This document shows, piece by piece, positions 13,131-52,320 of a stretch of 64,000 bases of DNA. Origin of the DNA: Dehalococcoidia bacterium (GTDB lineage Bacteria; Chloroflexota; Dehalococcoidia; Bin125); contig CAXXSR010000001.1 in assembly GCA_963662615.2 (NCBI GenBank), positions 416,001-480,000 on the forward strand. The letters are read 5' to 3'. Each line of letters opens with the position of its first letter. The first letter of the stretch is position 1. Below the pieces are notes generated by a model, which did no database searches, had not been told where the DNA came from, and saw nothing but the letters and a program-made list of their open reading frames with translations. The position numbers were made by a program, and so were the translations under genes.

Positions 13131-13167
13131 GTACAATGGCCGGGGGGCGGCGTGGGGAGGGTGCGCC

Positions 13168-13749
13168 ATAGACCTGCAAGCGCTGCTGGACGAATTAGAA
13201 GAGGCGGTTCTGCAAGGACAGCGCGCTCGCTTGGGGCGTGGTTGGCTGGTGGAGCGCGACCGTCTGCTTGATCTCATTGACCGGATCCGCGCGGTTGTGC
13301 CCGGCGAGATCGGCGACGCCCGCGCCATCCTGCGCGATCGCAACGACCTCCTGGCGCAGGCGAACGACGAAGCAGAGCTAGTGCTCACCAAAGCGCGCCA
13401 CGAAGCGGAGCTGCGGGTGGACGCACACGATCTCACGCTGGACGCGCAGCGCCGCGCGGCGGAGATCATTGAGCAGGCGCGCGAGCAAACGCGGACGGTC
13501 ATGGAAGAGTCGCGAATGGAGGCGACGGCGATCCGCGGCGATGCGACGAGCCAGGCCGTGGAGCAAGCGCGCGAGGCCGACCGCTATTCTCTGGACGTCC
13601 TGCGACGGCTGGAGGCACAGCTGACGGCGCTGACGACGAGCGTGCGGGCCGGCGTGACCCAGTTGGATCAGAAGATGGAGCAGGAGGAAGCGCAGCTCGC
13701 GGTGGACCGCCGGGACAGGCCGATGCGGGAGCGGCGCAGCGAATCGTAG
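13168..13749 (+). CDS. Coiled-coil DivIVA-like protein commonly found after coaD; probable ATA start
   Basis: DLQALLDELEEAV...LVERDRLLDLIDRIRAVVPGEI; GGAGG lies 7 nt before ATA. Confidence 0.8.
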   Translation: MDLQALLDELEEAVLQGQRARLGRGWLVERDRLLDLIDRIRAVVPGEIGDARAILRDRNDLLAQANDEAELVLTKARHEAELRVDAHDLTLDAQRRAAEIIEQAREQTRTVMEESRMEATAIRGDATSQAVEQAREADRYSLDVLRRLEAQLTALTTSVRAGVTQLDQKMEQEEAQLAVDRRDRPMRERRSES

Positions 13750-13849
13750 GCCCCGCCCTCGCAGGTGCTGCCGTCGATCGCACGGCGGCGGGCCAGGATG
13801 GCAGTGCGCAGCCACTGTCTCCGCTCCAAGAACGGGCCGGCCCCCGCGT

Positions 13850-13920
13850 TCGCTCCTACGCCATGCTCCTTCCCACGAGGGGAAGGACAGGTCAGGACAG
13901 GCAAGCGCAGGGCGAGCGGG
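13850..13920. repeat. Composite palindromic repeat with a second copy at ~16152-16227
   Basis: ctccttcccNNgaggggaaggacaggtcaggacaggca is shared by both sites. Confidence 0.8.
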
Positions 13921-13945
13921 TGCGTTGCCGGTCCCAGGTGCGTTG

Positions 13946-14932
13946 ATGCGCATTCGTGCCGGCTGCGCCGTCCTGCTACTCCTTGCAGTTGGGTTGGTGA
14001 TCGCTGCCTGCGGCGGCGGGGACGAGCCCGCCTCCGAGCAGCCGCCGGCCGAGGCCGGGGCGGCGCCGCTCCCTGAGGAGACGCCCGCCGACGCGGTAGC
14101 GGGCGGCGACTCCGCCCCGCCATCCGCGATTGCGGCCGATGCCGCTCCCGCCGGCCGTCTGGGCCTCAGTGACTATCTGATCATCACGTTGGCCATCGAC
14201 GCGGAGTGGAACCGGGGGCTGGCCGATCTCCGGTCGCAGTTGGGAGGCGTAGCGCTTCAGCGCGAGTTGGCGCAGCGATTGCGCGAGCGCCTACAGTCGC
14301 TCTCGGGAATGCTGCCGCCCCAACCGGCGCAGGACTATCACCGCTCATTGCAGGAGGTGTCCAGCCGGCTGCGGGCGGGCCTGGAGGGCGAAGAGCCCGT
14401 GGATCTGCCGGAACTCCTGTCGGATTTTGAAGTGGTGAACGCGCAGGGGTTCCGCCTGGCCAGGGCGGTGTTGGCAGAGGAGGGCGACGATCCGCTCAAT
14501 CGCTACCTGCTGGCGGCCGTGGAGGTGCGGCTGGAGAGCGCGCGGGCGCTGCGGGCGTTCGGCCAGGAGGCGCAAGAAGCGTTTCTGTCGTTGCAGACGG
14601 CGGAAGACTTAGCGGCGATTTTCGTCCTCATTGAGCGGTTCATTGCGGACTTTGAGGCGGAAGTGGAGCGCTGGCGGCAGCTCTCGCCGCCCGTGGAAGC
14701 GCGCGCGCTGCATCAGCGCCAGCTGGACGTGCTGGCCGACACGATCGCCGTGGAACGCCAGATCCTGGCCGCGCTGGAAGGGCTGGTGAACGCAGAGCAG
14801 CGAGGCGATCTTCAGCAGGAGGACTTGGCCCCGTTGTTGGCGACCTTCGGCTCGGCGGAGGAGGTGTCGATTGCCGGCACCTATCTCCTGGCCGACTGGA
14901 ACGAGCTGCTGATCGCGGCGCTAGAGCCGTGA
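13946..14932 (+). CDS. Alpha-helical lipoprotein of unknown function
   Basis: Lipobox LVIAAC-GGG, acidic Pro/Ala linker, two helical repeats (LSGMLPPQPAQDYH / LSPPVEARALH). Confidence 0.8.
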   Translation: MRIRAGCAVLLLLAVGLVIAACGGGDEPASEQPPAEAGAAPLPEETPADAVAGGDSAPPSAIAADAAPAGRLGLSDYLIITLAIDAEWNRGLADLRSQLGGVALQRELAQRLRERLQSLSGMLPPQPAQDYHRSLQEVSSRLRAGLEGEEPVDLPELLSDFEVVNAQGFRLARAVLAEEGDDPLNRYLLAAVEVRLESARALRAFGQEAQEAFLSLQTAEDLAAIFVLIERFIADFEAEVERWRQLSPPVEARALHQRQLDVLADTIAVERQILAALEGLVNAEQRGDLQQEDLAPLLATFGSAEEVSIAGTYLLADWNELLIAALEP

Positions 14933-14984
14933 GGGGGGGGCGCGCGTCGACGGGCAGCGGCAAGGGGCCGTTGGATTTGCCGCG

Positions 14985-15221
14985 TCATTGACCTGGAGAC
15001 AGCGCCGATCTCTTCCTTGAGCGGGTCGCTTTCACGGCACCAACCTTCGCAGCGAGTTGCATCCGGTTGTCGCAATCCCACTTGATCAGGACGCCTCTGA
15101 GGTAATTTTTCACGGTCGTCTTGGAGACAAGGAGCGCCCGCGCGATCTCCGCATTGGTGCGGCCCTGCGCCACCAATTCAGCGATGGCCGCCTCGCGAGC
15201 GGTCAAGTTGCGCCGGTCCAT
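14985..15221 (-). CDS. Stand-alone LuxR/GerE-type HTH regulator, copy 1
   Basis: LTAREAAIAELVAQGRTNAEIARALLVSKTTVKNYL. Confidence 0.88.
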   Translation of the reverse strand: MDRRNLTAREAAIAELVAQGRTNAEIARALLVSKTTVKNYLRGVLIKWDCDNRMQLAAKVGAVKATRSRKRSALSPGQ

Positions 15222-15451
15222 GGCTCCCCTTCCATGGAATCCCTACACCCATTGACGTCGTGCGCCGGCGCGGTGGGCAGGCGACGTGCCGACAAGTCGC
15301 CCAGCGCGCGCCTAGTCTAGCTCCAAATAATTAATGATCAAACGACTTTCCGGTCGCAGATCACGGTTGGCGTGATCATGTCAAAAACGGAAGATTCCCT
15401 AATATTCAAAACAGTACGGTTCTGGGAGTCTCATCTGAAGAGGGCCATCAG

Positions 15452-15985
15452 ATGAGGCGTGACCACGTTGACATTGTGCTTGGCGAGGCCGGCCGTGGGC
15501 GACCGGATCGTGACGTCTCGCCCGTGGCAGTGACGGCCCGGATCTTGCGCGCCGCTCGCTTCCTTGAGTCAGGATTTGATGCGGGGCTGGCGAGGTCCGG
15601 CCTCAGCTATTCGGAGTTCGACGTGCTCGCGACGCTGAGGCGGGTGGGGAGCGACGAGGGGCTCGCGCCTTCCGCCATCGCGCATTCACTGATGCTTTCG
15701 CGGGCGACCATCACCGGACGGCTGGACCGGCTGGAAGCTGCCGGCTACGTGCGGCGCCGGCCCGACCGCTCGGACCGGCGCGGCCTCTTGGTGGGGCTGA
15801 CGGCCAAAGGCCGGAAGGTCATTGACGAGGCGTTGCCCCCATACCGTGCGAATCTCGATCGGCTGATCGCACCGCTGAGCGATAGGGAGCGTACGCGGTT
15901 GGCGGGGCTGCTGCGCAAGCTGCTGCTGGCGTTCGAAGCGGAGGCTGCGGGCGGCGCCGGACCGCGCCGGTCGGCACCTCCGTAG
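15452..15985 (+). CDS. MarR family transcriptional regulator (PecS/TamR-like)
   Basis: GLSYSEFDVLATLRR...ITGRLDRLEAAGYVRRRPDRSDRRG. Confidence 0.93.
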   Translation: MRRDHVDIVLGEAGRGRPDRDVSPVAVTARILRAARFLESGFDAGLARSGLSYSEFDVLATLRRVGSDEGLAPSAIAHSLMLSRATITGRLDRLEAAGYVRRRPDRSDRRGLLVGLTAKGRKVIDEALPPYRANLDRLIAPLSDRERTRLAGLLRKLLLAFEAEAAGGAGPRRSAPP

Positions 15986-16003
15986 CCGGCGTTTTTTCTC
16001 CCC

Positions 16004-16133
16004 TCGCGTCGATGAACCATCACGGCGCGGACTGTCTACCCCGCGCCGATTTTTTTGGCCATCGCGTCGACGAACCGTCACGGTACGGACTGGCTCCCCC
16101 GCGCCGAACCTTTTTGGCGATCGCGGCGGCGAA
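16004..16133 (+). repeat. ~59-bp tandem repeat x2.2, each full unit ending in a terminator-like hairpin plus T-run
   Basis: Units start at 16004, 16062 and 16121; unit 1 contains cggcgcgg...ccgcgccg followed by atttttttt. Confidence 0.75.
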
Positions 16134-16243
16134 TTGTGTAGGGCGGCTGGCGCTCGCCCCTTCGGCGCGCTCCTTCCCGGGAGGGGAAGGACAGGTCAGG
16201 ACAGGCATGCTGAGGGCCAACGGCGGGCAATCACGCTGTCGGA

Positions 16244-16480
16244 TCACCCAGCCGTGGACGGCGATGATCGCTCGCTTGAGCGCCCCACTTGCCAGGCGCC
16301 CACCTTCGCGGCCAGTTGCGTCCGGTTGGCGCAATCCCACTTGATCATGATGTCTCTGAGGTGATTTTTCACCATCGTCGAGGAGACAAGGAGGGCCTCC
16401 GCGATCTCCGCATTACTGCGACCCTCCGCCACCAATTCAGCGATGGTGACCTCGCGATCGGTCAGCTGGCTCCGATCCAT
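16244..16480 (-). CDS. Stand-alone LuxR/GerE-type HTH regulator, copy 2
   Basis: LTDREVTIAELVAEGRSNAEIAEALLVSSTMVKNHL; clear paralogue of 14985..15221. Confidence 0.88.
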   Translation of the reverse strand: MDRSQLTDREVTIAELVAEGRSNAEIAEALLVSSTMVKNHLRDIMIKWDCANRTQLAAKVGAWQVGRSSERSSPSTAG

Positions 16481-16729
16481 GGCACGTTCCTTCACCGAAT
16501 TCCCCCGCCCAATGACGTTGTGCGTGTGCGCGGTGGGGCGGGCGACAAGCCGGCAAGTCGCCGACCGCGCGCTAATTTGTCGCCAAATAATTTAGAATCG
16601 AACTACTCTCCTGTGGCACATCATCGGTCGGCGTGGTCATGTCAACATCGGGGGATTCCCTGATCTTCCAGAGGGCCCGGATGGGGCGGGCCTCTCGCTT
16701 CCTGGAGCGGGCCGCGGCGGCCCGGCGCG

Positions 16730-16918
16730 CGGCTTTTTCGACGCGCGCTCGCGGGTCGTCCGGGTTCGCGCGGCGTTGGTGGCGGCTCGCGCCGGCAGTT
16801 GATGAGCGGGGCGTGGTCGTCTCGTTCGCCCTTCGACAGGCTCAGGGCGAACGGCTCTTTTGACGCGCGCTCGCGGGTCATCCGGGTTCGCGCGGCGTTG
16901 GTGGCGGCTCGCGCCGAG
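16730..16918. repeat. REP/BIME-like mosaic of two palindromic repeat families
   Basis: ttttgacgcgcgctcgcgggtcRtccggg...gcggctcgcgccg x2 flanking cgttcgcccttcgacaggctcagggcgaacgg. Confidence 0.88.
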
Positions 16919-16940
16919 ACGGCGTCGTCGGGCGGACGGG

Positions 16941-19493
<2,553 letters not shown>

Positions 19494-19682
19494 CGTTGCT
19501 CCATCTTGGCCCACGCAGCGGGCGGTGGCCTTGGTTATCAGCATCCCGCCGCGGCGGCGCGAAGGTCAATGATCGCGGTTGCCTCGCCGACCGGTTGCGG
19601 GCGCGCGTGCACTCGTGCGGCAGTGCCCACTACGGTGTAGGCAGCGCCGACGTTGGAGCGGCCGGTAGAGGAGGTATAGGGG

Positions 19683-20212
19683 ATGGCGGAGAGCGAGGAT
19701 CCGGGGCCGCTGGTCGGCGTGCTGATGGGCTCGCAGTCGGACTGGGAGACGATGCGGGCGACGGCGGAGACGCTGGAGGAGTTGGGCGTCGCCTGCGAGA
19801 CGCGCGTCCTCTCGGCCCATCGCACGCCGGACGAGACGCTGGCCTACGCGGCGGGGGCGGCGGATCGGGGCTGGAGGTGCTGATCGCCGGGGCGGGCGGG
19901 GCGGCAGCGCTGCCGGGGGTGGTGGCGGCCAAGACGCTGCTGCCGGTGATCGGCGTGCCCATGACCGGGTGGGCGCTGCAGGGCCTGGACGCGCTGCTTT
20001 CCATGGTGCAGATGCCGGGCGGTGTGCCTGTGGCAACCGTGTCGATCGGGCGGGCGGGCGCCGTCAATGCGGCCCTGCTGGCGGCGCGGATCCTGGCCAT
20101 CAGCCACCCTGAGATCGGGGAGCGGCTGGACGCGTACCGGCGGCAGCGGGCGGAGTCGGCGCTGAAGGCGCCGGACCCGCGCGCGGGGGAGGGGCCGGGG
20201 CGCCGGTCCTGA
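19683..20212 (+). pseudogene. purE: N5-CAIR mutase PurE with a one-base deletion in a G run (sequencing error or pseudogene)
   Basis: [11 protein letters not shown]...SAHRTP in one frame and [20 protein letters not shown]...[15 protein letters not shown] in another; junction at GGGG 19867-19870. Confidence 0.92.
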
Positions 20213-20237
20213 TCCTGCGCCCCACTAGAAGCGCAAG

Positions 20238-20852
20238 CGTTCGCCCCTTCGACTTTTTCGCCCGCGCTCGCGACTGGTCTGGGCCAGCGCGGTATTCGTG
20301 GCCGCTCACGCCGGCGGTTGATGAGCGATTTTTTTGACGCGCGCTCGCAGCTCATCCGGGCTCGCGCGGCGTTGCTGGCGGATCGCGCCGGCGGTTGATG
20401 AGCGGGGCGGTGTCGGGAGCGTTCGCCCTTCGACAGGCTCAGGACGAACGGACGCGGACGGCCGCGCGCGACGGGCTCAGGCGAGAGCGGTATGAGCACC
20501 TCCCCCCCGGCCCTCTCTCCATCGGTCAGCGATGGCGAGGGGGAGAAGAGCAGCTCATCCGGGCTCGCGCGGCGTTGCTGGCTCGCGCCGGCGGTTGATG
20601 AGCGGGGCGGTGTCGGGAGCGTTCGCCCTTCGAGGCTCAGGACGAACGGACGCGGACGGCCGCGCGCGACGGGCTCAGGCGAGAGCGGTATGAGCACCTC
20701 CCCCCCGGCCCCCTCTCCATCGGTCAGCGATGGCGAGGGGGAGAAGAGCACTGTTCGCCGTTCGCCCTTCGACTTTTTCGCCCGCGCTCGCGACTGGTCT
20801 GGGCCAGCGCGGTATTCGTGGCCGCTCGCGCCGGCGGTTGATGAGCGGGGCG
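20238..20852. repeat. Nested repeat mosaic: ~90-bp unit at both ends enclosing a ~200-bp tandem duplication
   Basis: 20238-20327 matches 20759-20848; ~20350-20552 matches ~20550-20749; includes cttcgacaggctcagg and ccctctctccatcg...cgatggcgaggggg hairpins. Confidence 0.9.
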
Positions 20853-20938
20853 GTGGTGGTCTCGGTCGCCCCTTCGTCCTTCCCGCGGGGAATGATCAGG
20901 ACAGGCTCTTCGGCGGGCTAAGGCGAGAGCGCCGGCGG

Positions 20939-22298: not shown

Positions 22299-22299
22299 G

Positions 22300-27003: not shown

Positions 27004-28461
27004 TTAGGACGCCGCCGCGGCCAGCGGCGGAAAGCTGCTCGCGCGGTCGGATTCGAAGGCGGCGTAGAAGTCGTCAGGCGCGACGCCGAAGGCGAGGGCG
27101 AACGCCTGCTCCCATCGCAGGCCGGTCCCCAGCAGGCGCCAGAACTCCAGCAGCGGCGCGAGGTCGGGACCGCCGGTCAACCGTTCAGCGGCGAGGTAGC
27201 CCAGAGCGTAGCCGCTGCGGAAGCCGACGCGATTGAGACCCGCTTCGGTTTCGAGCGAGCTGAGGGAAGCGGCAGTCCCGCGCGCCTTCTCCTCGTTCTG
27301 GACGCCCGCTGCGGCGAGGTCGGTGCGCCCCGCCGCCGCCGCCACGACCGTCTCCACGTAGCGCGCCGCGCCCTCGAAGAGCCAGAGGGGGCCGCGACCG
27401 CCGAAGCCGGACGCCTGCAACTGGAGAACGTGGAAATACTCATGAATGATGGCGCTGCGCCGCGCCTCGTCGCTGCCGAGGCGCCAGCCGTCGCTGCCGG
27501 TGTTGATCCAGATGCTGGTGCGATTGCCGAAGCCGACCGTGAAGCCGGACCAGCGCTGCCGCACCGAGTCGATCGCGGAGGCGGGGAGAGCGAACCAGGT
27601 CAGCCATCTTGCAACCAGTGAGTCGGTGTCGGCGAACGCAAACACGGTGAAGGCCGTCACGTCCAAGGCATGATTCCCGCTGAAGTAGAGGCGTGCTTCG
27701 GTGAGGGCATCGCGGATCAGGCGTTGATCTTGCGCCGTCACGCTCGCCTGGAATTCGAAGGCGGGCGCGCCGGTCAGGGGCACGCAGGGCAGGGTGGAAG
27801 GGACGACGGTTTGGTCGCCGTCGGGCGGCCACGAGGCCGAGCCGCAGGTCCGGATCCAGAGTCCGTCGCCCTGATTGATGGCGGCGAGCGTGTTGAGGAA
27901 GCTGGGGCCGTCGCGGTTGAAGGTCAGGAACCGTTGCGATGCGGAGTCATAGGCGAAGAGCGTGGACCAGGGAGCGGCGAGGCCCACGAGTGCGTCCGCC
28001 ACCGGCGTTGCGTCCGGTGCGAACGAGGCGACGAGATTGAGGCCGATGAAGAGCGGGATGGGGTCTGGGTCCGGGTGGACGGCGCGAGTCCAGAAGAGCG
28101 GCGCCTCGCCGTCGATGAGGACCCAGAGCCCTTGCCCGAGCCGCACCGCGTTCAGGTCGTTGAGGAAGGCGGGCGCTCCGCGGCGCGCGGTTCGGTAGCG
28201 CCGCGTCAGCGGGTCCCAGGCGAAGGCCGCGCGCGCCGGCTCGCCGATCGAGTCGAACAGCTCCGCCACGGGCGCGTCGGCGAGCGTCCAGCCTACGAGG
28301 TTGAAGCCGGGCTGCAGGAGTGTCGTGACGGTGGCGAGCGAGGGCTCCTCGCTGCCGTGGGCGTCGTGCGGGGGAGCCGCGGACAGCGCCCCGAAGAGCG
28401 AGGCGGCAACGACGATGCAGAGGAGGCCGGCGGCCGTGGCTGTGGTCCTCGCCCTGAAAAT
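27004..28461 (-). CDS. Secreted zinc metallopeptidase (gluzincin/MA-like) with two N-terminal accessory modules; probable ATT start
   Basis: IIHEYFHVLQ and WLFEGAARY; a signal peptide follows an ATT that has AAGGAGGAG 6 nt upstream. Confidence 0.8.
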   Translation of the reverse strand: MFRARTTATAAGLLCIVVAASLFGALSAAPPHDAHGSEEPSLATVTTLLQPGFNLVGWTLADAPVAELFDSIGEPARAAFAWDPLTRRYRTARRGAPAFLNDLNAVRLGQGLWVLIDGEAPLFWTRAVHPDPDPIPLFIGLNLVASFAPDATPVADALVGLAAPWSTLFAYDSASQRFLTFNRDGPSFLNTLAAINQGDGLWIRTCGSASWPPDGDQTVVPSTLPCVPLTGAPAFEFQASVTAQDQRLIRDALTEARLYFSGNHALDVTAFTVFAFADTDSLVARWLTWFALPASAIDSVRQRWSGFTVGFGNRTSIWINTGSDGWRLGSDEARRSAIIHEYFHVLQLQASGFGGRGPLWLFEGAARYVETVVAAAAGRTDLAAAGVQNEEKARGTAASLSSLETEAGLNRVGFRSGYALGYLAAERLTGGPDLAPLLEFWRLLGTGLRWEQAFALAFGVAPDDFYAAFESDRASSFPPLAAAAS

Positions 28462-28799
28462 GGAGCGCTCCTCCTTCCCAAGGAAGGACCGGCTTTGCCG
28501 GATCGATCGCGCTTTAAGTCGCGCTCTGAATCGCGCTGTCATCGTAGGGCGTGGGCGGCCCGGGGGCTGAGGCTGCTGCCTTGACGTGGCCCGTCGCGCA
28601 AGGGGCGAGGCTTCGTAGTTGGCGGGGATCGGCGGCGGCGAGCGTCCCGAGCGATTTACGATGGTGCCGTCACCCACCTCTCTTCAGTGCATCGAGTGGA
28701 GTGGAGGCTGCCGTGCTTCACGACCAGCCACCGCCTGAATCCAAGAGCGCCCCGTCTTCCGCAGCGGACCAGACGGCGCCGCGTGAGGGCCATCTACAG

Positions 28800-33928: not shown

Positions 33929-34756
33929 ATGGCCGACGCCGACGTCGAGGCTCCAGCGCTGACGCTGGAGCGGGCCGCAGCGGAATACTTTGACGCCGCC
34001 GCCAAGAAACTGGAGCAGCGCCAGCGCGTGGCCGTCACGCGGTTCGTCTCTTGGTCCGGCCCCTCGCGGGCGATCGGCGCAATTACGGCGCACGAGATCA
34101 GCCAGTTCCAAGAGGGACAGGGGCAGCACGTCGCCGATCTCTCCGAGCGGCTGGTGCCGCTGAAGGCGTTCTTCACGTACGCGCGACGGCGCGGCTGGAC
34201 GGCGACGAACCTGGGTGTCCATCTGCGTGTGAAACGGCCGCAGCGCCGGCTCGGCGCCGCCGGCGCGCAGGAGGAGCCGGAGCCGAGGGAAACGATTGAG
34301 ATGACACCGGAGGGGCTGAAGGCAGCGACGGGGGAGCTGGAGCGACTGAAGGGGGAGCGGCCGGGGATGGCGGCACAGTTGGAGGCGGCGATGGCGGATA
34401 AGGACTTCCGCGAGAACGCGCCGCTGGAGGCCGCCCGCGACGCCCAAGGCCACTTGGAGGCGCGCATACGCGAATTGGAGCACCAGCTCGGGCACGCGGT
34501 GGCGGTGAAGCGGGACGAGGCCTCACGGGGCGGGCAGGCGCACCTCGGCAGCGCCGTCAAGGTCACCAATCTTGTCTCCAGTCGGACCGTTCAGTACACT
34601 CTCGTCGGCCAAAACGAAGTGGATACGGCGGCCGGACGGATTTCGGTCGTGAGTCCAGTGGGTCAAGCGCTGGTCGGCCGCAGTGCGGGTGACGTTGTGG
34701 CTGTGGAAGCGCCCTCTGGAACCATCCGCTTCCGCGTTGAAACGGTTGAGGGGTAG
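33929..34756 (+). CDS. greA: GreA with N-terminal tyrosine-recombinase core-binding (SAM-like) domain
   Basis: C-terminal DKDFRENAPLEAAR...ISVVSPVGQALVG; N-terminal ITAHEISQF...LVPLKAFFTYARRRGW..TNL. Confidence 0.88.
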   Translation: MADADVEAPALTLERAAAEYFDAAAKKLEQRQRVAVTRFVSWSGPSRAIGAITAHEISQFQEGQGQHVADLSERLVPLKAFFTYARRRGWTATNLGVHLRVKRPQRRLGAAGAQEEPEPRETIEMTPEGLKAATGELERLKGERPGMAAQLEAAMADKDFRENAPLEAARDAQGHLEARIRELEHQLGHAVAVKRDEASRGGQAHLGSAVKVTNLVSSRTVQYTLVGQNEVDTAAGRISVVSPVGQALVGRSAGDVVAVEAPSGTIRFRVETVEG

Positions 34757-34830
34757 GATCGCCCGTCCGCGGACGCGCGAGTGGCGCGGGACAGCGTCGC
34801 CCGGCATACGGTCTGGAAGGGGCGCTCGCC

Positions 34831-36006
34831 ATCAGCAGCGACCTGCCCGACATTGCCTTTGAGGTCACGGGAGCGCATCTGGACAGCGGGCTGCGCGGCG
34901 TCCCCGTGGGGACGTGCTGGACCAGCTACGTCGATCCCGAACTCGGCGTCAGCTACGCCGGGTACAACATCGCCGAGCTGGCCTACATGGCGCCGGAGTC
35001 GGTCATCTACTTGCTCTTTCATAAGCGCCTGCCCACGAAGGCCGAGGCCGCGGCGTTTGACACCGACCTGGCAGCACGGTCGCAAGTGGACCCGCAGGTG
35101 TTCGCCATGCTGCAGTCGCTGCCGCGCCAGGGGCATCCCATGGAATGGTTCTGCACGGCCATCCAGCTGCTGGGGATGGAGGGCAAGAGCGGGGACTACC
35201 AAGAAGACGGGATGAATCTGGTGGCGCGGATCCCCGCCGTGCTGGCGGCGCTGTTCCGCATCCGCGAGGGCTGGGGGGCCCCGATCCCGTCGGAGCCGGA
35301 TCGCGGCTATGTGGAGAACTTCGTCCACATGCTCGGCCTCCCCGGCGCCGCCGACGCGGCGCTGACGAAGCTGCTGCGCATCTACTACGTGCTGCACATG
35401 GACCACGGCGGCGGCAATCTCTCCACCTTCACCGGCAAGGCGGTGGCGTCCGGGCTGGCCGACATGTACCAGTCCATGGCGTCCGCCATGAACGGCCTGG
35501 CCGGCCCCCGGCACGGGCTGGCCACCCAGGACTGCTTCGCGATGGTGCGGGAGATCGACAGCGAAGACGAGGTGGAGGTGGAACGGCGGCTGGCCGATCG
35601 GCTCGCCCGCGGCGAATTGCTCTACGGTTTCGGTCACGCCGTCTTGCGACGGGAGGACCCGCGAGCGAAGGTGCTGTTCGACGTGGGCGACGAGATCTGC
35701 CCCGCCGACCACAACTTCCGCGTGCTGAAGGCGATGCGGGTAGCGGGCGTCAAAGTGCTCAAAGGGAACGCGAGGGTCACGGATCCATACCCCAACGTGG
35801 ACCTGGCCTCCGGCACCCTCCTGCACGCGGTGGGCTTCACCGATCCCGCCTACTACACGACCCTCTTCGGTTGGTCCCGCACGGCGGGCATCGCCGCCCA
35901 GATCGTGGACGAGCGGCTGCACTTCCGGAAGGGAAAGGGCGTGCCCATTTACCGGCCGCGCTATATCCCGGTCAACCAGCCGCGCCGCTCCCTCAGCAAG
36001 CAGTAG
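34831..36006 (+). CDS. Citrate synthase; probable ATC start
   Basis: GLRGVPVG, LHMDHGGGNLST, AGPRHGLA, GFGHAVLRREDPR, PNVD. Confidence 0.93.
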   Translation: MSSDLPDIAFEVTGAHLDSGLRGVPVGTCWTSYVDPELGVSYAGYNIAELAYMAPESVIYLLFHKRLPTKAEAAAFDTDLAARSQVDPQVFAMLQSLPRQGHPMEWFCTAIQLLGMEGKSGDYQEDGMNLVARIPAVLAALFRIREGWGAPIPSEPDRGYVENFVHMLGLPGAADAALTKLLRIYYVLHMDHGGGNLSTFTGKAVASGLADMYQSMASAMNGLAGPRHGLATQDCFAMVREIDSEDEVEVERRLADRLARGELLYGFGHAVLRREDPRAKVLFDVGDEICPADHNFRVLKAMRVAGVKVLKGNARVTDPYPNVDLASGTLLHAVGFTDPAYYTTLFGWSRTAGIAAQIVDERLHFRKGKGVPIYRPRYIPVNQPRRSLSKQ

Positions 36007-44453: not shown

Positions 44454-46115
44454 CTAGGGCGGGGCGTCCGGATCCACGACGACTCGCTCTCCATCGATCC
44501 AGACCACGACGAACACTTCCGGGGCGGCCAGGCGATACGGCCCCGGGATAAAGTCGCCCCAATGCCAGCCCAAAGGTCCGAACGTGCGAGCGATCTCGTC
44601 CTGCGATCGTGCGAAGCCCTGGAACAGCGCCACATGTGGCTGGCCATCGAGGACGAGCCCCTGCGCCCGCACGAAGGCGACGAAAACGGGATTCTCGAAG
44701 GCCAGTCCAGGCTCCTGCATGGTGACGTCCGGAAACCGCTCCAGGACCTCGTCGATGGTGACGATCCGCGCGCCCTCATACGGGATCAGAAAGAGCACGC
44801 GGGCGTCGTCCACCCAGCCGGGGATGGCGTACTCGACCCGCGCGAAGAGGAACTGCCCGTCGGAGAGATCGCCCTCCGGCACTTGGTGCTCGATGATGCG
44901 AGAGGAGACTCCTTCCAGACGGACGGGCGGCGGCTCATCCTCTCGTTTGAAGAGCCCAATGCCGCCCTTCGGTTCCTCCACTTCCTCCTCGGGCGATGTG
45001 GCATCGACCGTGGGGGCGCTCTCCGGGGCGCGTCCTTCGACAGGCTCAGGACGAGCGGATCCCGGCGCCGGGGCCTCCTCGGGCGGCGGCGTCTCCTCGG
45101 CGCTCTCAACGACCGCCTCATTCTTCGCGCTCTCGTCGGCGCGTCCTTCGGCAGGCTCAGGACGAGCGGCCTCAGGACGAGCGATGGCCGGCGCCGGCGC
45201 GGTCGCGGCAGCGGCGTCGAGGGCGACGGCGAGATCGGCATCTCTGACGACCGTCTCAAATCTGGCCAGGATCGTTCCGTCCGCTGCCACCACGAAGAGC
45301 CAGGGGTCGTTGCGGAGATGCCAGTCCCCCAGCGCGCCCGCGGCGGCGCTCGCTCCTTGGCCGTCGGCGTCGCGGAACGGTTCGACGTGGATCGCCGGGA
45401 CCGCGGCAGCGGACGCCAGCCGCTTGATCTGGTCCAGCGCCCGCTCGCAGAGCTGCCGCACGATGCACGTCTCCAAGGAGCTGAACAGCACCACGAAGGG
45501 GCGGCCCCGCCGCAGCGCGCCGGCAACGGAGATCTCGTAGAGGAGGGGATCGGGCGCGCGATCGCCGCTGAGCTGGGCCAGGGGAAGGTCGGCGGTCGTG
45601 AGGGTGGGAGTGGCGGGGGCCGCTGCGCCGACGGCCGGGGTGAGCGGGGTCGCCGCGACGAGGAAGGGCAAGCGCGCGCTCAGTTGCGATTCGCCATTGG
45701 GGAGCGCGGCGATGACCTGCAGCTCCCACTGCCCCGGGCGATCCAGCGGCGCCGCCGCCACGTAGAACGTCTTCGAACCGACAGGGATGACCTCCAGCTC
45801 GTGGTCGGCGCGAAAGCGCACGCCGCCCGTCACCGGATCGAAGTAGCGCAGCGTGAAGGTGGCGCCGGGGGGAAATCGCGGCGGCGCCGCGCGGTCGAGC
45901 AGGGAGAGGACGAGGCGCATCTCCCCCACCGCCAGGTCGCTCGATTCCAGGACCGGCACGAAGGGGGCCGTGGAGGGCAGGACGACGGTGGCGGCGTCGG
46001 CAGGGCCGTCGGAGCCGTCGGTGAGGAGGACGACCAGCAGCGCCACCAGCGCCGCGACGCCGACGAGGGAGAGCGGGATCAGCCAGCGAACCCGGGGGAG
46101 CGCGCGCGGGAGCAT
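44454..46115 (-). CDS. Membrane-anchored thioredoxin-like protein (paralogue of 22300..23409) with an extra C-terminal domain
   Basis: SDLAVG, VVLFSSLETCIVRQLC, IHVEPF, PWLFVVAADG; linker ARPEPAEGR / ARPEPVEGR. Confidence 0.8.
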   Translation of the reverse strand: MLPRALPRVRWLIPLSLVGVAALVALLVVLLTDGSDGPADAATVVLPSTAPFVPVLESSDLAVGEMRLVLSLLDRAAPPRFPPGATFTLRYFDPVTGGVRFRADHELEVIPVGSKTFYVAAAPLDRPGQWELQVIAALPNGESQLSARLPFLVAATPLTPAVGAAAPATPTLTTADLPLAQLSGDRAPDPLLYEISVAGALRRGRPFVVLFSSLETCIVRQLCERALDQIKRLASAAAVPAIHVEPFRDADGQGASAAAGALGDWHLRNDPWLFVVAADGTILARFETVVRDADLAVALDAAAATAPAPAIARPEAARPEPAEGRADESAKNEAVVESAEETPPPEEAPAPGSARPEPVEGRAPESAPTVDATSPEEEVEEPKGGIGLFKREDEPPPVRLEGVSSRIIEHQVPEGDLSDGQFLFARVEYAIPGWVDDARVLFLIPYEGARIVTIDEVLERFPDVTMQEPGLAFENPVFVAFVRAQGLVLDGQPHVALFQGFARSQDEIARTFGPLGWHWGDFIPGPYRLAAPEVFVVVWIDGERVVVDPDAPP

Positions 46116-46930
46116 CAGGCGGCGCGGGCGGAGCGACGGAGCCCCACGGTAAAGAGCGCAAGCGCCAGGCCACCCAGGACCGCGAAATCGATGGCGGGAC
46201 CCAGGAAGCCGTCGGTGTTGGCCGCGTAGGCGGCGGTCTGCAAGAGGTCAACCGGATAGGTGAGCGGGTTGATCAGGCCGAGAATGCGGAGCCACTCCGG
46301 CAACTCGTCGAGGGGGAAGAAGGCGCCGGAGAGGAAAAAGAGAGGGAACAGCACCAGGTTCATGACGAGGTGGAAGCCTTGCATGGTGCGGATGCGCGTG
46401 GCGATGAGGAGGGCGAATCCGGAGAGCATGACGTTCAGCGCCAGGATGCCGGCCACCACCATCGCCAAGCCGCCCAGCCAGCCGTACTGCCAGGCCAGGT
46501 CGATGCCGGGGATGAGCACCGCCACCGCCAGGATGATCAGCGCCTGCGCCGTGCCGATGACGACCGCGGCCAGCGCCTTGCCCAACAAGATCGTGTGGGC
46601 GCTGTGCGGCGACGCCAGGAGCGTGCGCAGCATCCCGTTTTCGCGGTCGCGGTAGAAGGAGGCGCTGGAGAAGGTGGAGGAGAAGAGCGCCGTCAGCGCG
46701 ATCATGCCGGGGGCGAGGTAGCTGACGTAGTCGCCGTCGCGGATGATCGCGGAGGCGGGGTTGAGCCCGTCGGAGACGCCCGTGCCGAGGATGGCGAGCA
46801 GCATCAGCGGCAGCAGCACGGACGAGTAGAGCTGCGAGCGCGAGCGCAGGAAGGCGCGCAGGTCGCGTTGCAGCAAGGCCCCGCAGGCGATGGCGGCTGC
46901 AGTGATGGGGGCCGCGGCGAAGGCGGTCAC
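46115..46930 (-). CDS. ABC-2 type exporter permease (DrrB-like)
   Basis: YLAPGMIA, DRENGML, PLFFLSGAFFP, NPLTYPVD. Confidence 0.93.
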   Translation of the reverse strand: MTAFAAAPITAAAIACGALLQRDLRAFLRSRSQLYSSVLLPLMLLAILGTGVSDGLNPASAIIRDGDYVSYLAPGMIALTALFSSTFSSASFYRDRENGMLRTLLASPHSAHTILLGKALAAVVIGTAQALIILAVAVLIPGIDLAWQYGWLGGLAMVVAGILALNVMLSGFALLIATRIRTMQGFHLVMNLVLFPLFFLSGAFFPLDELPEWLRILGLINPLTYPVDLLQTAAYAANTDGFLGPAIDFAVLGGLALALFTVGLRRSARAA

Positions 46931-47907
46931 GGGGAGCCCAGCTCTTCCCCAACGGGGGCAGGGGCGTCGCTGTCCAGGGGCGTGCCCACAAGCTGGAAGT
47001 AGGCATCCTCCAGGGTGGATTCGCGGATGCGAATCCCCTGCACGGCGCCGTTGGCGATGCGGAACAGCTGGGGGACGAAGGTGGAGGCGCTATCCACCGT
47101 CGCGTGCAGGAGCGGAGGGGCGCAGGTGACGCGACCGACGCCCTCCCAGCCGGCCAGGGTGGCAGCGATGTGGGACGGCGCCGACGGCCACTCCACGCGG
47201 ACCGAGTCGCGTCGCAGGTTGCGCTTGAGGTCGGCGGGCGCGCCCGCGGCGATGACGCGGCCGTCGCGCAGGAAGGCGACCGTGTCGCAATAGCGCTCCG
47301 CCTCGGCGACGTCGTTGGTGGCGACGAGGAGCGCAGCGCCCTGGGCCCGGACCTGCAGCAGCATCTCCCACAGCGTCGCTTTGGAGTTGGGGTCCAGCCC
47401 CAGCGAGGGCTCATCCAGCAGAAGCAGGCGCGGCCCGTGCAGGACCGCCCGCAGCAGCTCCAGGCGGCGCTTCATGCCGCCGGACAGCGTTTCCACGGGA
47501 TCGTCGGCGCGCTCCGCGAGCCCCGCGAGCGCCAGCAGCTCGTCGCTGCGGCGCCGCAGCGCGCCACGCCCGGTCCCGAAGAGGCGTCCATGCAGCCACA
47601 AGGTCTCGCGGACCGTCATCAGGGGGTCCAGGCAGCTCTCCTGGAAGAGGACGCCGAGGTGGCGTCGGAGGTGCCGGCCGACGGGCTCGCCCAACACTCG
47701 CACCTGGCCCTGCTGGGGCGCGCGAAAGCCCGCAACCAGGCTCAAGATGGTGCTCTTGCCCGAACCGTTGGGGCCCAGCAGTCCCAGGACGGCGCCCGCC
47801 GGCAGCATCAGGGTCACGTCCTCGACGCCTCGGCCCCCTGGGTGGAGATAGGTGAGGTCGCTGAGGGCGACCGCCGCGGCGTTGGAAGAGGGCGGGATCT
47901 GTGTCAT
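46927..47907 (-). CDS. ABC exporter ATP-binding protein (DrrA-like)
   Basis: GPNGSGKST, LSGGMKRR, LLLLDEP, TLEDAYF. Confidence 0.95.
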   Translation of the reverse strand: MTQIPPSSNAAAVALSDLTYLHPGGRGVEDVTLMLPAGAVLGLLGPNGSGKSTILSLVAGFRAPQQGQVRVLGEPVGRHLRRHLGVLFQESCLDPLMTVRETLWLHGRLFGTGRGALRRRSDELLALAGLAERADDPVETLSGGMKRRLELLRAVLHGPRLLLLDEPSLGLDPNSKATLWEMLLQVRAQGAALLVATNDVAEAERYCDTVAFLRDGRVIAAGAPADLKRNLRRDSVRVEWPSAPSHIAATLAGWEGVGRVTCAPPLLHATVDSASTFVPQLFRIANGAVQGIRIRESTLEDAYFQLVGTPLDSDAPAPVGEELGSP

Positions 47908-48074
47908 GCGGACCTGAACGAGAACGGTTCGAGTGTATGCCGTTGGCGCTCCGGCGGCGAGGGCTGCGGCGGCGAGCGCGTAGCGCGGAGGCGATTGACC
48001 CGCTTTCCTTGCCGCCCATACAGTTCGTGTAGAACCTACACTAAGTCAACGGACGACCGTCGAACGGCAGTCGC

Positions 48075-49799
48075 ATGCGTCGGTTCCGCCTCGCGCTGGC
48101 CCAACTGAACCCCACAGTGGGGGACTTGGACGGCAATGTGGCCGCCATGCAGGCGCGCCTGAGCGAAGCCGAGGAGTTGGGCGCGGACCTGGTGGCCTTT
48201 CCGGAGCTGGCCATCACCGGCTACCCACCGGAAGATCTGGTCCTGCGACGGCGCTTTGTGCACGACAACCTCAAGGCGCTGGAACGGCTGCAGACGGCCA
48301 CGGCGGGCAAGCACGTGACCGTCGTGGTGGGCTTTGTGGACCTGCAGGACGACGCCTACAACGCCGCCGCCGTCCTCCACGACGGCGCCGTGGCGGGCGT
48401 GTATCACAAGCGCTACCTGCCCAACTACGGCGTCTTCGACGAGGCCCGCTACTTCCGACCCGGCAGGGAGGCGCCGGTGTTCGAGGTGGCGGGCGTGAAG
48501 GTGGGCGTGAGCATCTGCGAGGACATCTGGTATCCGCTCGGCCCCGTGCGGGAGCAGGCGCTGGCCGGAGCGGAGGTGATGGTCAACATCAACGGCTCGC
48601 CGTTCCACGCCGGCAAGATCGGCGAGCGCGAGCGCATGCTGGCGACCCGCGCTTGGGACAACGGCGTGATCGTGGCCTACTGCAACATGGTGGGCGGCCA
48701 GGATTCGCTCATCTTCGACGGCGGCAGCATGGTCCACGACCCGCGCGGCCGGCGCATTGCGGCGGCGCCCATGTTCGAAGAGACGCTGTTGACCGTCGAT
48801 CTGGATGTGGACTTCGTGGGGCAGGTGCGCCTGCACGACCCGCGCATCCGCAGCCTGGAGGCGGAGCCGGCCCCGGCGCTGCCGGTGTCGTCGCCGCAGC
48901 GGGAGCCGCCGCCGCCACTGCCGCCACAGTCGCTGCCCGAGCCGCTGCGCGAGGTCGAGGCCGTCTACGCGGCCTTGGTGCTGGGCACGCGCGACTACGT
49001 CCGCAAGACGGGCTTCGAGGACGCCGTCATTGCCCTCTCCGGCGGGATTGATTCCAGCCTCACCGCGGCGATCGCCGTGGCTGCACTGGGCGGCGCGCAC
49101 GTCCGCGGCGTCTCCATGCCTTCGCGTTATTCGTCGGAGGGCAGCATGGGCGACGCGCGGGCCCTGGCGGACAGTTTGGGCATGGAGCTGCTGACGATCC
49201 CCATTGAAGGGCCGTTCGCGGCGTTTCTGGACGCGCTCCAGGACGCCTTCGCCGGGGTGGAGGCGGACGTCACGGAAGAGAACCTGCAGGCGCGCATCCG
49301 CGGCACCCTGATCATGGCGCTGAGCAACAAGTTCGGGTCGCTGGTTCTCTCCACGTCCAACAAGAGCGAAGCCGCTACCGGCTACACGACGCTCTACGGC
49401 GACATGAGCGGTGGCCTGGCCGTGCTCCAGGATGTGCCCAAGACGCTGGTGTACGGCCTGGCCCGTCACGTCAATGAGCGGGCCGGTCGCGAGATCATCC
49501 CTGAGCGCGTGATCGAGAAGCCGCCCAGCGCGGAGCTGCGCCCCGACCAGCGGGACGAGGATTCCCTGATGCCCTACGCGCGCCTGGATCCCATTCTGCA
49601 GGCGTTCGTGGAGGAGGACCGCACGCTGGGGGAGATCGTGGCGGCGGGCTCCGCGGAGGCCGAGGTGCGGCGCGTGATGTCGCTGGTGAGGGCCGCCGAA
49701 TACAAGCGCCGCCAGGCCCCGCCGGGGCTGAAGATCACCCCCCGCGCCTTTGGCAAGGACCGCCGCTTTCCCATCGCCAATCGCTACCTGGGATCGTAG
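48075..49799 (+). CDS. nadE: Glutamine-dependent NAD+ synthetase
   Basis: Nitrilase domain FPEL/LPNYGVFDE/ICEDIW; SGGIDS, ENLQARIRG, NKSE, TLYGDM. Confidence 0.97.
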   Translation: MRRFRLALAQLNPTVGDLDGNVAAMQARLSEAEELGADLVAFPELAITGYPPEDLVLRRRFVHDNLKALERLQTATAGKHVTVVVGFVDLQDDAYNAAAVLHDGAVAGVYHKRYLPNYGVFDEARYFRPGREAPVFEVAGVKVGVSICEDIWYPLGPVREQALAGAEVMVNINGSPFHAGKIGERERMLATRAWDNGVIVAYCNMVGGQDSLIFDGGSMVHDPRGRRIAAAPMFEETLLTVDLDVDFVGQVRLHDPRIRSLEAEPAPALPVSSPQREPPPPLPPQSLPEPLREVEAVYAALVLGTRDYVRKTGFEDAVIALSGGIDSSLTAAIAVAALGGAHVRGVSMPSRYSSEGSMGDARALADSLGMELLTIPIEGPFAAFLDALQDAFAGVEADVTEENLQARIRGTLIMALSNKFGSLVLSTSNKSEAATGYTTLYGDMSGGLAVLQDVPKTLVYGLARHVNERAGREIIPERVIEKPPSAELRPDQRDEDSLMPYARLDPILQAFVEEDRTLGEIVAAGSAEAEVRRVMSLVRAAEYKRRQAPPGLKITPRAFGKDRRFPIANRYLGS

Positions 49800-49879
49800 C
49801 CATCGCGCAGCGCCGGGGACGGCGGCGCCGTTCTTGCTCCGGCGGGGCTCTTGCTCCGACTGGGAAGGGCGTAAGGCCG

Positions 49880-52096
49880 TCAGGGCAGGTAGTTGGTCGC
49901 GTCCAGGAGCCAGCCGTTGTGCTCCATCTCCAGGTGGAGGTGGATGCCGGTGCTGAAGCCGGTGGTCCCGGCGAAGCCGATCGTCTCGCCCCGGCCGACG
50001 CGTTGCCCAACGGCGACGGGCGGCTGATTGGCCAAGTGGCCGTAGCGGCTCAGCCAGCCGTTGCCGTGGTCGATCTCCACGTAAAAGCCCAGGCCGCAGC
50101 AGAAGGTGCCGCCGGCGAAGGTCACCTCGCCGCCGGCAATGGCGACGACGGCCCCCCCGGGATTGAAGTGCAGGGCGATGTCTAGGCCGTGGTGGCGCAC
50201 GCCGCAGTCGCTGGTGCGACAGAGGCCGAAGCCGTCGCTGATGTCGCCGCTGGCCGGCCAGATGAAGGGGGGCACGGACACGGGCACGATCAGCTCCTGC
50301 CCGATGATCAGCGCGTTGGCATCCGTCACGCCGCTGCGGGGATCGCGCAGGATCGCCTCCACCGTGGTTCCGTACTGCGCCGCGATCACCGCGAGAGTGT
50401 CGCCCGCGGTCACCTGCACCACCACGCCCTCGCGGTCCGGCACCCGTAGGGGCGTTCCCGCCGAGATCCAGTCGCTGTCGGCGAGGCTGGGGTTATTGGC
50501 GATCAGCGTGTGGGGCAGGACGCCCAGTCGCGCCGCCACGTACGTCAGCCCATCGGTCTGCTCGGTGACCACGGTGCGGGAGGCCACCGGGATGGGGACC
50601 GTGCCGGGGAGGCGCAACTCGTCGCCCAGGGCGATGAGGTTGGGATCAATGTCGGGGTTGAGTTGCTCCAGGGCGGCCACTTGTGTGCCGAATTTCTCGG
50701 CGATGGCGCTGAGCGTATCGCCGGTCTGGACGGTGTAGCGCGGGAAGGGCGGCGGGCCGGCGGGGACGGTGCCGGGCGGCGGCGGGGGGAGATCGATGTC
50801 GGGGACGGTCAGGATGGCGCCGATCTGCAGGAGGTCCAGGTTCGCCTGCGGGTTCAGCTTCGCCAGCGCGTCCAGCGTGATTTGGTGGATGGCGGCGATG
50901 GTGGTGGCGTTGTCGCCGGGGAGCACCGTGTAGCTGGTGAGTTCGACGGCGAGGTCGGGCAGGGCGGGCGTGCCGTCCTGCCGGGGGCCCGGCAGTTGCA
51001 GCGTATGGCCCACGTAGACCGTGTTGAGGTCGCGTTCCGGATTCAACGCCTGCAACTGCGCCAGGGTGAGCCTGTGGGCGAGAGCGATGCCGATGGCGCT
51101 GTCGCCCGCCACAACGGTGTAGGGGTGCGTGGCTGAGCCGCCCGGCGACGCCGGGGTGACGGCCGGATCAGCGGCCGAGGGCAGCAGCAGCGTCTGTCCC
51201 ACGTAGATCAGGTTCAAGTTCAGATCCGGATTGGCCGCCCGCAGCTGCGCCAGCGTGATGCCGACTTCCAGCGCGATGCCGCTCGCGGTGTCACCGGGGA
51301 GGACAGTGTACGGTCGCGTGGCGGCACCCGAGGGCGGCGGCGTCACCGTCACATCGTCGCCGGAGGAGATGGGCGGCGCGCCTCCGGATCGGGGCGCAAA
51401 GATGACCGCGCCCGCCCGCAGTCCGTCATCGGCAGCGCGCGGGTTTAGTGTCAGCAGCGTCGCCACCGTCGTGCCGAAGCGGTCGGCGAGGGTGCTGAAC
51501 GTGTCGCCGGGTTGGACGAGATAGGGGATCACGTTGCGGCCGTCCAGCCGCGGCGTGGAGCCGGGCGCCAGCGCGCGGTCTGCGTCCGCGCTGGAGGTGG
51601 GGTCGGGCGGCGCGCTGAGGTCGTCGCGGATGACCAGTTCCACGCCTACCGGCAGCGCGTTGGGAATCAGGCTGGGATTGAGGTTGACCAGGTCCGCCAC
51701 CGAGACGCCGTAGAGGCCGGCGATCTCGCTGAGCGACTGTCCCGATTGCACCGTGTGTGTGAGGCGGATCGCTTCGGTGGTGGGGACGGTGGTTTCGGGG
51801 ACGGTGGTTATGGGGACGGCTGTGTCAGGGACGCCGGCGTCGGGCACGGTGAGGCGCTGTCCCACGTAGATGAGGTCGGGCGAGGTAACGCTGGGATTGA
51901 GGGCGTGCAGCAGGTCGGGCGTGAGGCCCAACGTCGCGGCGATGGCCGAGAGGCTGTCGCCGGGCTGCACCTCATAGGTATCGGCGACGGCCGAGCCCGG
52001 CGCCAAGGCGGCGACAATCAGCCCGCCCAGAATGAACGACCGGCGCAGGCGCAGGCGTAGGCGTAGGCGTAGGCGTAGGCGAGGGATGCGTCGCAG
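49880..52096 (-). CDS. Secreted M23 peptidase with nine LysM domains; probable CTG start
   Basis: Nine (Y/H)xVxxGDT-like repeats; HHGLD, YGHL, GFSTGIHLH; signal peptide with an (RL)n n-region. Confidence 0.9.
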   Translation of the reverse strand: MRRIPRLRLRLRLRLRLRRSFILGGLIVAALAPGSAVADTYEVQPGDSLSAIAATLGLTPDLLHALNPSVTSPDLIYVGQRLTVPDAGVPDTAVPITTVPETTVPTTEAIRLTHTVQSGQSLSEIAGLYGVSVADLVNLNPSLIPNALPVGVELVIRDDLSAPPDPTSSADADRALAPGSTPRLDGRNVIPYLVQPGDTFSTLADRFGTTVATLLTLNPRAADDGLRAGAVIFAPRSGGAPPISSGDDVTVTPPPSGAATRPYTVLPGDTASGIALEVGITLAQLRAANPDLNLNLIYVGQTLLLPSAADPAVTPASPGGSATHPYTVVAGDSAIGIALAHRLTLAQLQALNPERDLNTVYVGHTLQLPGPRQDGTPALPDLAVELTSYTVLPGDNATTIAAIHQITLDALAKLNPQANLDLLQIGAILTVPDIDLPPPPPGTVPAGPPPFPRYTVQTGDTLSAIAEKFGTQVAALEQLNPDIDPNLIALGDELRLPGTVPIPVASRTVVTEQTDGLTYVAARLGVLPHTLIANNPSLADSDWISAGTPLRVPDREGVVVQVTAGDTLAVIAAQYGTTVEAILRDPRSGVTDANALIIGQELIVPVSVPPFIWPASGDISDGFGLCRTSDCGVRHHGLDIALHFNPGGAVVAIAGGEVTFAGGTFCCGLGFYVEIDHGNGWLSRYGHLANQPPVAVGQRVGRGETIGFAGTTGFSTGIHLHLEMEHNGWLLDATNYLP

Positions 52097-52320
52097 GGTG
52101 CTTCCCCTAGCTGGCCGCCACCGCCACCTTCCTGGCCCGTCGCCGGGCCAGGGCCGCGCCACTGTACGCGAGTTCAGCGGATACGGGCAATGCGGGAGGA
52201 GCCGCACTCTTGTGGGACCGTTGGGCTCGCAGCGATGGGAGCGCGAACCGATCGGAGGACGCCGGTCATCATGGCGGCTATAGTGCCGGAGGGCGCGGGT
52301 GCCCGAGGTACGCCGGATCC

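Follow-up and report, generated by a model that had tools for sequence, protein, structure and literature searches.

Non-canonical start codons are already known from infC, from Streptomyces sigR and from Deinococcus dnaA and rpsL, and near-cognate codons in particular are one-base variants of AUG that are read by the ordinary initiator tRNA. In E. coli, where two near-cognate starts have been confirmed, initiation at AUA, AUC, AUU and CUG reaches 1-2% of the level of AUG (10.1101/063800); a near-cognate start of infC underlies the autoregulation of initiation factor 3 (IF3) in E. coli and Streptomyces, and the conserved GTC start of Streptomyces sigR is repressed by IF3 (PMC5472188); in Deinococcus, dnaA starts at ATC, rpsL and Deide_03051 at CTG, and infC at ATA (PMC2830850). 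The present analysis concerns four genes in a 64,000-nucleotide (nt) stretch of the genome of an uncultured Dehalococcoidia bacterium (Chloroflexota; positions 416,001 to 480,000 of contig CAXXSR010000001.1, assembly GCA_963662615.2), hereafter the window. A first, sequence-only reading had proposed that they start at such codons behind Shine-Dalgarno (SD)-like sequences: ATA 13168 (+; gene a, which follows coaD), ATT 28461 (-; gene b, for a secreted repeat protein), ATC 34831 (+; gene c, for citrate synthase) and CTG 52096 (-; gene d, for a LysM/M23 protein), all positions being those of the window.

The best explanation of these sites, to which we give a probability of about 0.75, is that they are not one phenomenon but separate, gene-specific initiations at near-cognate codons, each led by an SD sequence and carried out by an ordinary initiation apparatus. 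The four arrangements of SD sequence and codon were found as proposed, at working distances throughout and with a weak SD at gene d (Table 1). Among the four non-canonical starts themselves, those of genes a and c are well supported and that of gene b is probable; at gene d, CTG 52096 is no more than the best among several candidates. The most notable new item is the start of the gene after coaD, which appears to be AUC clade-wide.

The window corresponds to positions 416001-480000 of contig 1 (C1) of a genome of 2.66 Mb, in two contigs and with ~69% G+C, whose relatives, assembled from metagenomes, are Chloroflexota filed under Dehalococcoidia. Genes were called with a simple and rather crude codon-usage model of our own, which also supplied the coding scores and gave 2372 genes, 2013 of them with a score of at least 40. 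SD strength was expressed as the energy of the duplex with the 3' end of the genome's own 16S rRNA, and 117,504 in-frame codons near 5' ends were scored in this way. A set of 500 confident starts, each with a single canonical candidate (ATG 320, GTG 156, TTG 24), had a median pairing of -6.6 kcal/mol, ~46% being weaker than -6 kcal/mol; the 99th percentile of their coding-score cost was 7.9 nats. Scoring by the longest match to a 13-mer had too high a background (8% at 5 matches) and was dropped in favour of duplex energies. A screen of 84 flagged genes with a fixed SD motif served as a lead only; it missed gene c, whose SD contains a G-U pair.

The start codon of the gene that follows coaD

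Pairing of -11.9 kcal/mol or better, as found before ATA 13168, precedes 0.45% of 45,900 background codons, and an SD-like site is also present 5' of the aligned start codon in most orthologues of gene a. The sequence-only reading had omitted the in-frame GTG 13066, TTG 13072 and TTG 13087, which lie within coaD, as well as TTG 13231 and GTG 13249 downstream of the ATA codon. Across 20 genomes of the class, ATC stands at the aligned position in 10, ATG in 4, ATA in 2 and ATT, TTG, GTG or GTC in one each. In 43 species-representative loci, found with a 10-sequence alignment in a search that reached close relatives only, the aligned codon was ATC in 38, ATG in 3, CTG in 1 and TTG in 1, and 33 of these loci contain no in-frame ATG, GTG or TTG at all between the preceding stop and the aligned codon. 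Pooling 62 of the 63 sequences (L040, with a match starting at residue 27, was excluded) yielded 53 distinct ones, with ATC in 42, ATG in 4, ATA in 2 and TTG, ATT, CTG, GTG and GTC in one each; ATC, ATA or ATT is thereby found at the start column in 45/53 and ATG, TTG or GTG in 6/53.

The mean pairwise differences at codon positions 1, 2 and 3 were 0.31, 0.18 and 0.58 in codons 2-21 of gene a and 0.28, 0.19 and 0.51 in codons 22-45; the 45 nt 5' of the start gave 0.63, 0.62 and 0.62, with no coding-type pattern. Since this codon-position periodicity sets in exactly at the aligned ATA/ATC codon, protein-coding constraint begins there. The public protein model of gene a (P0025, 172 aa) is consistent with a start at TTG 13231. 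We regard the non-canonical start as real and conserved, which is well supported by these comparisons. A literature search on non-canonical start codons of Chloroflexi gave no report of it.

Table 1. Coordinates of the features discussed, in window positions unless marked C1 (contig 1).
Feature	Position	Strand	Remarks
SD GGAGG of gene a	13156..13160	+	7 nt to ATA 13168; pairing -11.9 kcal/mol
Gene a, 193-aa coiled-coil protein 3' of coaD	13168..13749	+	start ATA 13168 (well supported)
SD AAGGAGGAG of gene b	28468..28476	-	6 nt to ATT 28461; pairing -15.1 kcal/mol
Gene b, 485-aa secreted repeat protein, multi-copy family	27004..28461	-	probable start ATT 28461
SD-like GGAAGGGG of gene c	34815..34822	+	8 nt to ATC 34831; pairing -10.5 kcal/mol, one G-U pair
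Gene c, citrate synthase, 391 aa	34831..36006	+	likely start ATC 34831
Weak SD-like AGGGGAAG of gene d	52101..52108	-	4 nt to CTG 52096; pairing -7.2 kcal/mol
Gene d, 8 LysM domains and peptidase M23 domain	49880..52096	-	start uncertain; CTG 52096 best-supported candidate
Hexamer repeat, 6.7 copies, (Leu-Arg)n in charged N-region of gene d	52042..52081	-	
infC of the window genome	C1:~850360	-	CTG start; relatives are loci L121-L141

The start of gene a resembles that of infC in that a near-cognate codon behind an SD sequence is conserved across many species at one gene and is misplaced by gene callers, and the infC of this clade itself shows the same pattern as the AUU, AUC or AUA starts by which IF3 is autoregulated elsewhere. 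It differs in that the product is a coiled-coil protein and not a translation factor, with no feedback loop evident, and in that infC of the window's family uses CUG (as in 13 of 21 genomes of the class) and not AUH, where H is A, C or U. With Streptomyces sigR it shares a non-canonical start on a regulatory or low-abundance gene, retained throughout a clade of genus level or wider (32 of 34 species for sigR, 42 of the 53 sequences here), a strong conserved SD and misannotation in all public records. However, the start of sigR was proven by mutagenesis and N-terminal sequencing and its control by IF3 by overexpression and fidelity mutants, whereas the case for gene a is made by sequence comparison. 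The Deinococcus starts likewise concern a few housekeeping genes of a high-GC lineage, with ATC or CTG conserved among relatives, and likewise came to light through conserved N-termini 5' of canonical starts; there, labelled N-terminal peptides confirmed them, and other genes are involved.

Because AUC, or AUA in this genome, has been retained as the start throughout a clade within the Chloroflexota, the weak start of gene a would appear to be kept by selection. It may serve to hold down the output of the gene and, if infC and Streptomyces sigR are a guide, could make this output sensitive to the level of IF3.

In all 63 loci coaD lies directly 5' of gene a on the same strand. In the window, moreover, an 11-codon upstream open reading frame (uORF; 13136-13171, +) begins at ATG 13136 behind a GGAGG of its own (13123-13127) overlapping the 3' end of coaD, and terminates with a TAG that overlaps ATA 13168; this overlap may be due to chance or may be a coupling device. 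Both arrangements would suit a translation of gene a by ribosomes that have just ended coaD or the uORF, the weak codon then coupling its output to theirs instead of placing it under IF3. We consider this decidedly unlikely. The gap between coaD and gene a is 1-2 nt, or the genes overlap, in 7/63 loci, but it ranges from -4 to 241 nt with a median of 72 nt; most loci have, in our reading, an SD and a -10-like box of their own in the gap; and an ATA followed by G always makes a TAG in the +1 frame, so that the overlap with the uORF may be fortuitous.

The conserved box in the gap is TAnAnT-like and lies ~30-45 nt 5' of the start (L091-L110 and others), reading TAGAGT in many loci and TACAAT in the window (13131-13136); it suggests that gene a may have its own promoter. 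Immediately 5' of gene a, rsmD, which encodes the 16S G966 methyltransferase, and coaD occupy positions 12085-13130 (+). The rsmD product modifies a P-site base adjoining the initiator tRNA; the adjacency of these genes is common in bacteria, and the order rsmD-coaD-gene a is probably a coincidence.

The predicted structure of the gene a product has a small head at the N-terminus and a single long helix (residues 46-192), with a mean predicted local distance difference test score of 89.9. Searches of Pfam and NCBIfam gave sub-threshold coiled-coil matches only, and a Foldseek search of the PDB with the model likewise found nothing at E 0.001 or better. DivIVA (PF05103) did not reach the gathering score (12.2 bits where 28 are required, E 0.18), and the names 'DivIVA' and 'V-ATPase subunit H' are automatic labels from one source only. 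Homologues of gene a exist in Streptomyces.

Citrate synthase and the two genes for secreted proteins

Gene c matches the Pfam family Citrate_synt (PF00285) over the whole profile (1-357 of 357; E 3.2e-90; 303 bits, which is above the gathering score) and is the sole citrate synthase match in the genome. Its frame opens at 34750, after TGA 34747, and the sequence-only reading was right that it contains no canonical codon before GTG 34906, which lies inside GLRGVPV. Annotation from this GTG would strip 25 residues, including the conserved GLRGVP, from the organism's only citrate synthase, and would lower the coding score by 15.8 nats. Upstream, CTG 34813 is the sole other near-cognate codon and has no SD (-1.7 kcal/mol), whereas pairing of -10.5 kcal/mol or better, as before ATC 34831, is found at 1.4% of the 45,900 background codons. 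Read from ATC, the N-terminus ISSDLPDIAFEV aligns with the MSD(I/L)P(D/T)IEF of 18/18 relatives of the same family, which start with ATG (15) or GTG (3) within one or two codons of ATC 34831, and the 19 residues before GLRG compare with 18-20 in the three relatives in which they were counted (L002, L007 and L010). Both gene a and gene c therefore have a constrained N-terminus 5' of their first usable canonical start.

Since all 18 relatives use ATG or GTG and the gene is intact and conserved, the ATC of citrate synthase is a recent replacement of a canonical start; it is likely real and lineage-specific. The gain of ATC presumably reduced the efficiency of translation from an SD that was retained. 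The loss of ATG or GTG for a weaker codon, here and in an amidohydrolase-like gene described below, resembles the turnover of start codons under weak selection (PMC5622118), with the difference that this study appears to treat AUG, GUG and UUG, whereas the replacements here are ATC and CTG.

Genes c and d were also compared with assembled contigs, as opposed to raw reads, the results holding among the differences listed. Contigs from 4 runs, each of a different study and one possibly of the source sample, had no other letter listed at 34831-34833; those of one strain differ at the flanking sites 34785 and 35062. These data bear on the idea that the four sites are sequencing or assembly errors or belong to decaying pseudogenes. 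The genome is metagenome-assembled, judging by the records of its relatives, and a run of six G lies just 5' of gene a; nevertheless, the codon of gene a is common to dozens of independently assembled genomes, that of gene c has no listed alternative, and the reading frames of all four genes are intact and conserved, which makes such errors or decay scarcely credible. In the metatranscriptome run X20, only 5% of the sampled words were present.

The SD of gene b is of exceptional strength. Pairing of this class was found at 17 of the 45,900 background codons (0.04%) and at 2.4% of the 500 confident starts, being ~65-fold commoner at true starts than in the background, and no canonical codon in any frame lies at a working distance downstream of AAGGAGGAG in our reading. 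The upstream in-frame ATG 28542 indeed lacks an SD (+1.9 kcal/mol), as had been noted; a further in-frame codon, GTG 28677, had been omitted. The 27 codons that follow ATG 28542 include rare ones and cost 9.8 nats, beyond the 99th percentile. In three relatives (L043, L049 and L056), a short charged stretch, 3-9 residues in length, stands directly before the hydrophobic core, much like the MFRAR that would result from initiation at ATT. Gene b probably starts at ATT 28461, behind this SD.

For gene d, with matches to Pfam LysM (eight) and Peptidase_M23, the in-frame GTG 52162 and GTG 52207 upstream and TTG 52006 downstream had been left out. GTG 52162 has no SD (-0.9 kcal/mol), and the 22 codons after it are non-coding-like, at a cost of 18.7 nats; a start at TTG 52006 would leave out the charged segment and the larger part of the hydrophobic core. 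Of 13 loci, nine belong to relatives in which a signal-like stretch closely follows an ATG or GTG; the remaining four comprise the window's own gene and three with an unreadable N-terminus. It seems quite probable that gene d uses some non-canonical start, which would lie within 52096-52018. CTG 52096 is the best candidate in this interval and can be proposed tentatively.

The contig pieces of runs X1 and X4 among those listed end inside the hexamer repeat of gene d and do not cover CTG 52096. Strains X7 and X8 have 18 gap letters, whose position relative to the repeat is not given by the differences listed; variation of the repeat length among strains is possible.

Start codons across the genome and the initiation machinery

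Near gene 5' ends, an SD of -7 kcal/mol or better precedes 12-17% of the ATC, ATT, ATA and CTG codons and 15% of other sense codons, so that finding an SD-like site ahead of a near-cognate codon in frame is in itself nothing unusual. Good SDs are enriched 5-9x before ATG, 3-5x before GTG and 1.5-2x before TTG. The values for ATA, between 0 and 2.7x, come from 17-64 codons per set, which is too rare to judge, and five near-cognate codons at -13 kcal/mol or better against 1.7 expected are a hint. The test would not reveal an excess below about 10 genes per codon. What goes beyond chance is the strength of the SD at genes a, b and c; alignment with orthologues and the fact that no canonical start is usable strengthen this further. 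The 500 confident starts favour C just upstream (56% at -1, 46% at -2), and CC is found at all four sites.

Several points weigh against separate SD-led near-cognate initiation at the four sites. Genome-wide, good SDs are not enriched before ATC, ATT and CTG (0.5-1.1x), from which it follows that an SD with a near-cognate codon proves nothing alone. Initiation itself, its efficiency and any part played by IF3 are inferred at all four sites from the DNA. The ATC of citrate synthase is kept in 0/18 relatives, in contrast to the conserved codon of gene a, and could be a slightly deleterious change and not regulation. Gene b, whose family has 31 matches in its own genome, has no orthologue close enough for alignment of the N-terminus, and ATG 28542 lies in frame 27 codons 5' of its ATT in a genome where a weak or absent SD is found at ~46% of confident starts. 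At gene d, 8% of background codons have an SD of -7.2 kcal/mol or better, GTG 52162 is in frame 22 codons 5' of CTG 52096, and alternatives to this CTG include ATC 52087 as well as a number of CTG and ATT codons within or downstream of the (Leu-Arg)n repeat.

The points on genes b and d could mean that these two start at ATG 28542 and GTG 52162, with long charged N-regions, and that non-canonical starts are confined to genes a and c. Both upstream codons are in frame and not separated from the genes by a stop, the frequency of weak SDs at confident starts means that the lack of one does not disqualify them, and neither N-terminus can be aligned with orthologues. However, both intervening stretches look non-coding, with costs (9.8 and 18.7 nats) above the 99th percentile; the -15.1 kcal/mol SD located 6 nt before the ATT of gene b would be left without explanation; and the relatives of both genes have short N-regions. 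We judge the upstream starts unlikely.

The sequence-only reading had taken four such starts among about 65 genes as a sign of relaxed start-codon discrimination or of an IF3-responsive translational regulon. Genes without a good canonical start near the onset of coding number 4/50 in the window and 84/2013 in the genome, which is no clear enrichment, and we estimate that roughly 50 of the 84 are expected from the error of the measure. The top two flags, C1:893187 (-) and C1:771556 (+), were rejected as start cases. They are AhpD/CMD-like paralogues with an in-frame TGA in a Cys-x-x-TGA (CxxU) motif and coding sequence on both sides; a tRNA-SeC(tca) gene is present at C1:309606-309703, and the two paralogues are probably selenoproteins.

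The initiation machinery appears ordinary. The 3' end of the 16S rRNA is canonical and reads GGAUCACCUCCUUUCU; the anticodon stem of the initiator tRNA retains its GGG/CCC (three G-C pairs), and its position 1:72 is mismatched; and the two 16S purines that contact these G-C pairs, which we take to be G1338 and A1339 in E. coli numbering, appear to be present. In 21 genomes of the class infC starts with CTG (13) or with ATA, ATC or ATT (8), just 5' of a conserved motif, CTG being used in all genomes examined of the window's family and ATA, ATC or ATT in other families of the class. The near-cognate codon has the best SD of the infC gene in 21/21 genomes, and 12/21 have no upstream canonical alternative. 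As a near-cognate infC start, the arrangement that underlies the autoregulation of IF3, is kept in every one of these genomes, discrimination by IF3 is probably intact.

Near-cognate starts recur at other genes of the genome, four of which had been flagged by our own screen and were followed in relatives. The codon is CTG at mutS (C1:877095, +) in 5/17 loci, one of which has a stop four codons upstream, and at mutS2 (C1:615274, -) in 6/17 loci, two of which have a stop one codon upstream. An amidohydrolase-like gene (C1:183622, -) has CTG, where the aligned codon is ATG or GTG in 5/6 related loci and GTC, with a GTG one codon upstream, in the sixth. A livH-like permease gene (C2:9762-9768, + strand of contig 2) has ACG or ATC at its start position, which is ACG in 4, ATA in 3, ATC in 2, CTG in 1 and ATG in 1 of 11 genomes. 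Together with gene a, citrate synthase and infC, at least seven near-cognate starts are thus backed by homology. A rough estimate would place near-cognate starts at 0.3-1.5% of genes, above the two confirmed in E. coli; in kind they are like those of Deinococcus (PMC2830850).

Both this number, at least seven in 2.66 Mb against two in E. coli (10.1101/063800), and the drift of the permease start among ACG, CTG, ATA, ATC and ATG would fit a lineage-wide relaxation, in which an altered IF3, initiator tRNA or 16S rRNA allows the free use of AUH and CUG in many genes. Such a relaxation is nevertheless improbable and the earlier suggestion of it is not supported, in view of the missing SD excess before ATC, ATT and CTG next to the 5-9x of ATG, the ordinary mix of canonical starts, the intact tRNA stem, contacting purines and anti-SD, and the near-cognate infC start in 21/21 genomes, which makes regulatory sense only if IF3 still discriminates.

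The other suggestion of that reading, an IF3-responsive set of genes, may hold; several genes of the family retain near-cognate starts in more than one genus. It is conceivable, if something of a long shot, that across its genera the family holds a constant group of low-copy genes on near-cognate starts, at ~10x the frequency known in E. coli, with the concentration of IF3 jointly setting their output. The coaD-linked coiled-coil gene, mutS, mutS2, infC and the transporter permease would be candidate members, again as a speculative grouping. If such a set were real, it would form a translational regulon through which growth state bears on mismatch repair and on functions of the cell envelope or of division.

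Standard gene callers accept only ATG, GTG and TTG. Besides the truncation of citrate synthase mentioned above, gene a has 172 aa in its public model instead of 193, and the same kind of truncation is to be expected for infC, mutS and mutS2 in the window's family. The AUC start shared by some 40 of the 53 gene a sequences would be a clear case in nature of a weak start that is selected for in a gene other than infC, and the CUG start of the clade's infC is a further variant; the two genes offer comparative material on which genes stay under IF3-sensitive or low-efficiency initiation. Among minor observations on the assembly, an identical 124-aa frame occurs near the end of contig 1 (C1:2002095, -) and at the start of contig 2 (C2:790, -), which is either a shared repeat or an assembly overlap.

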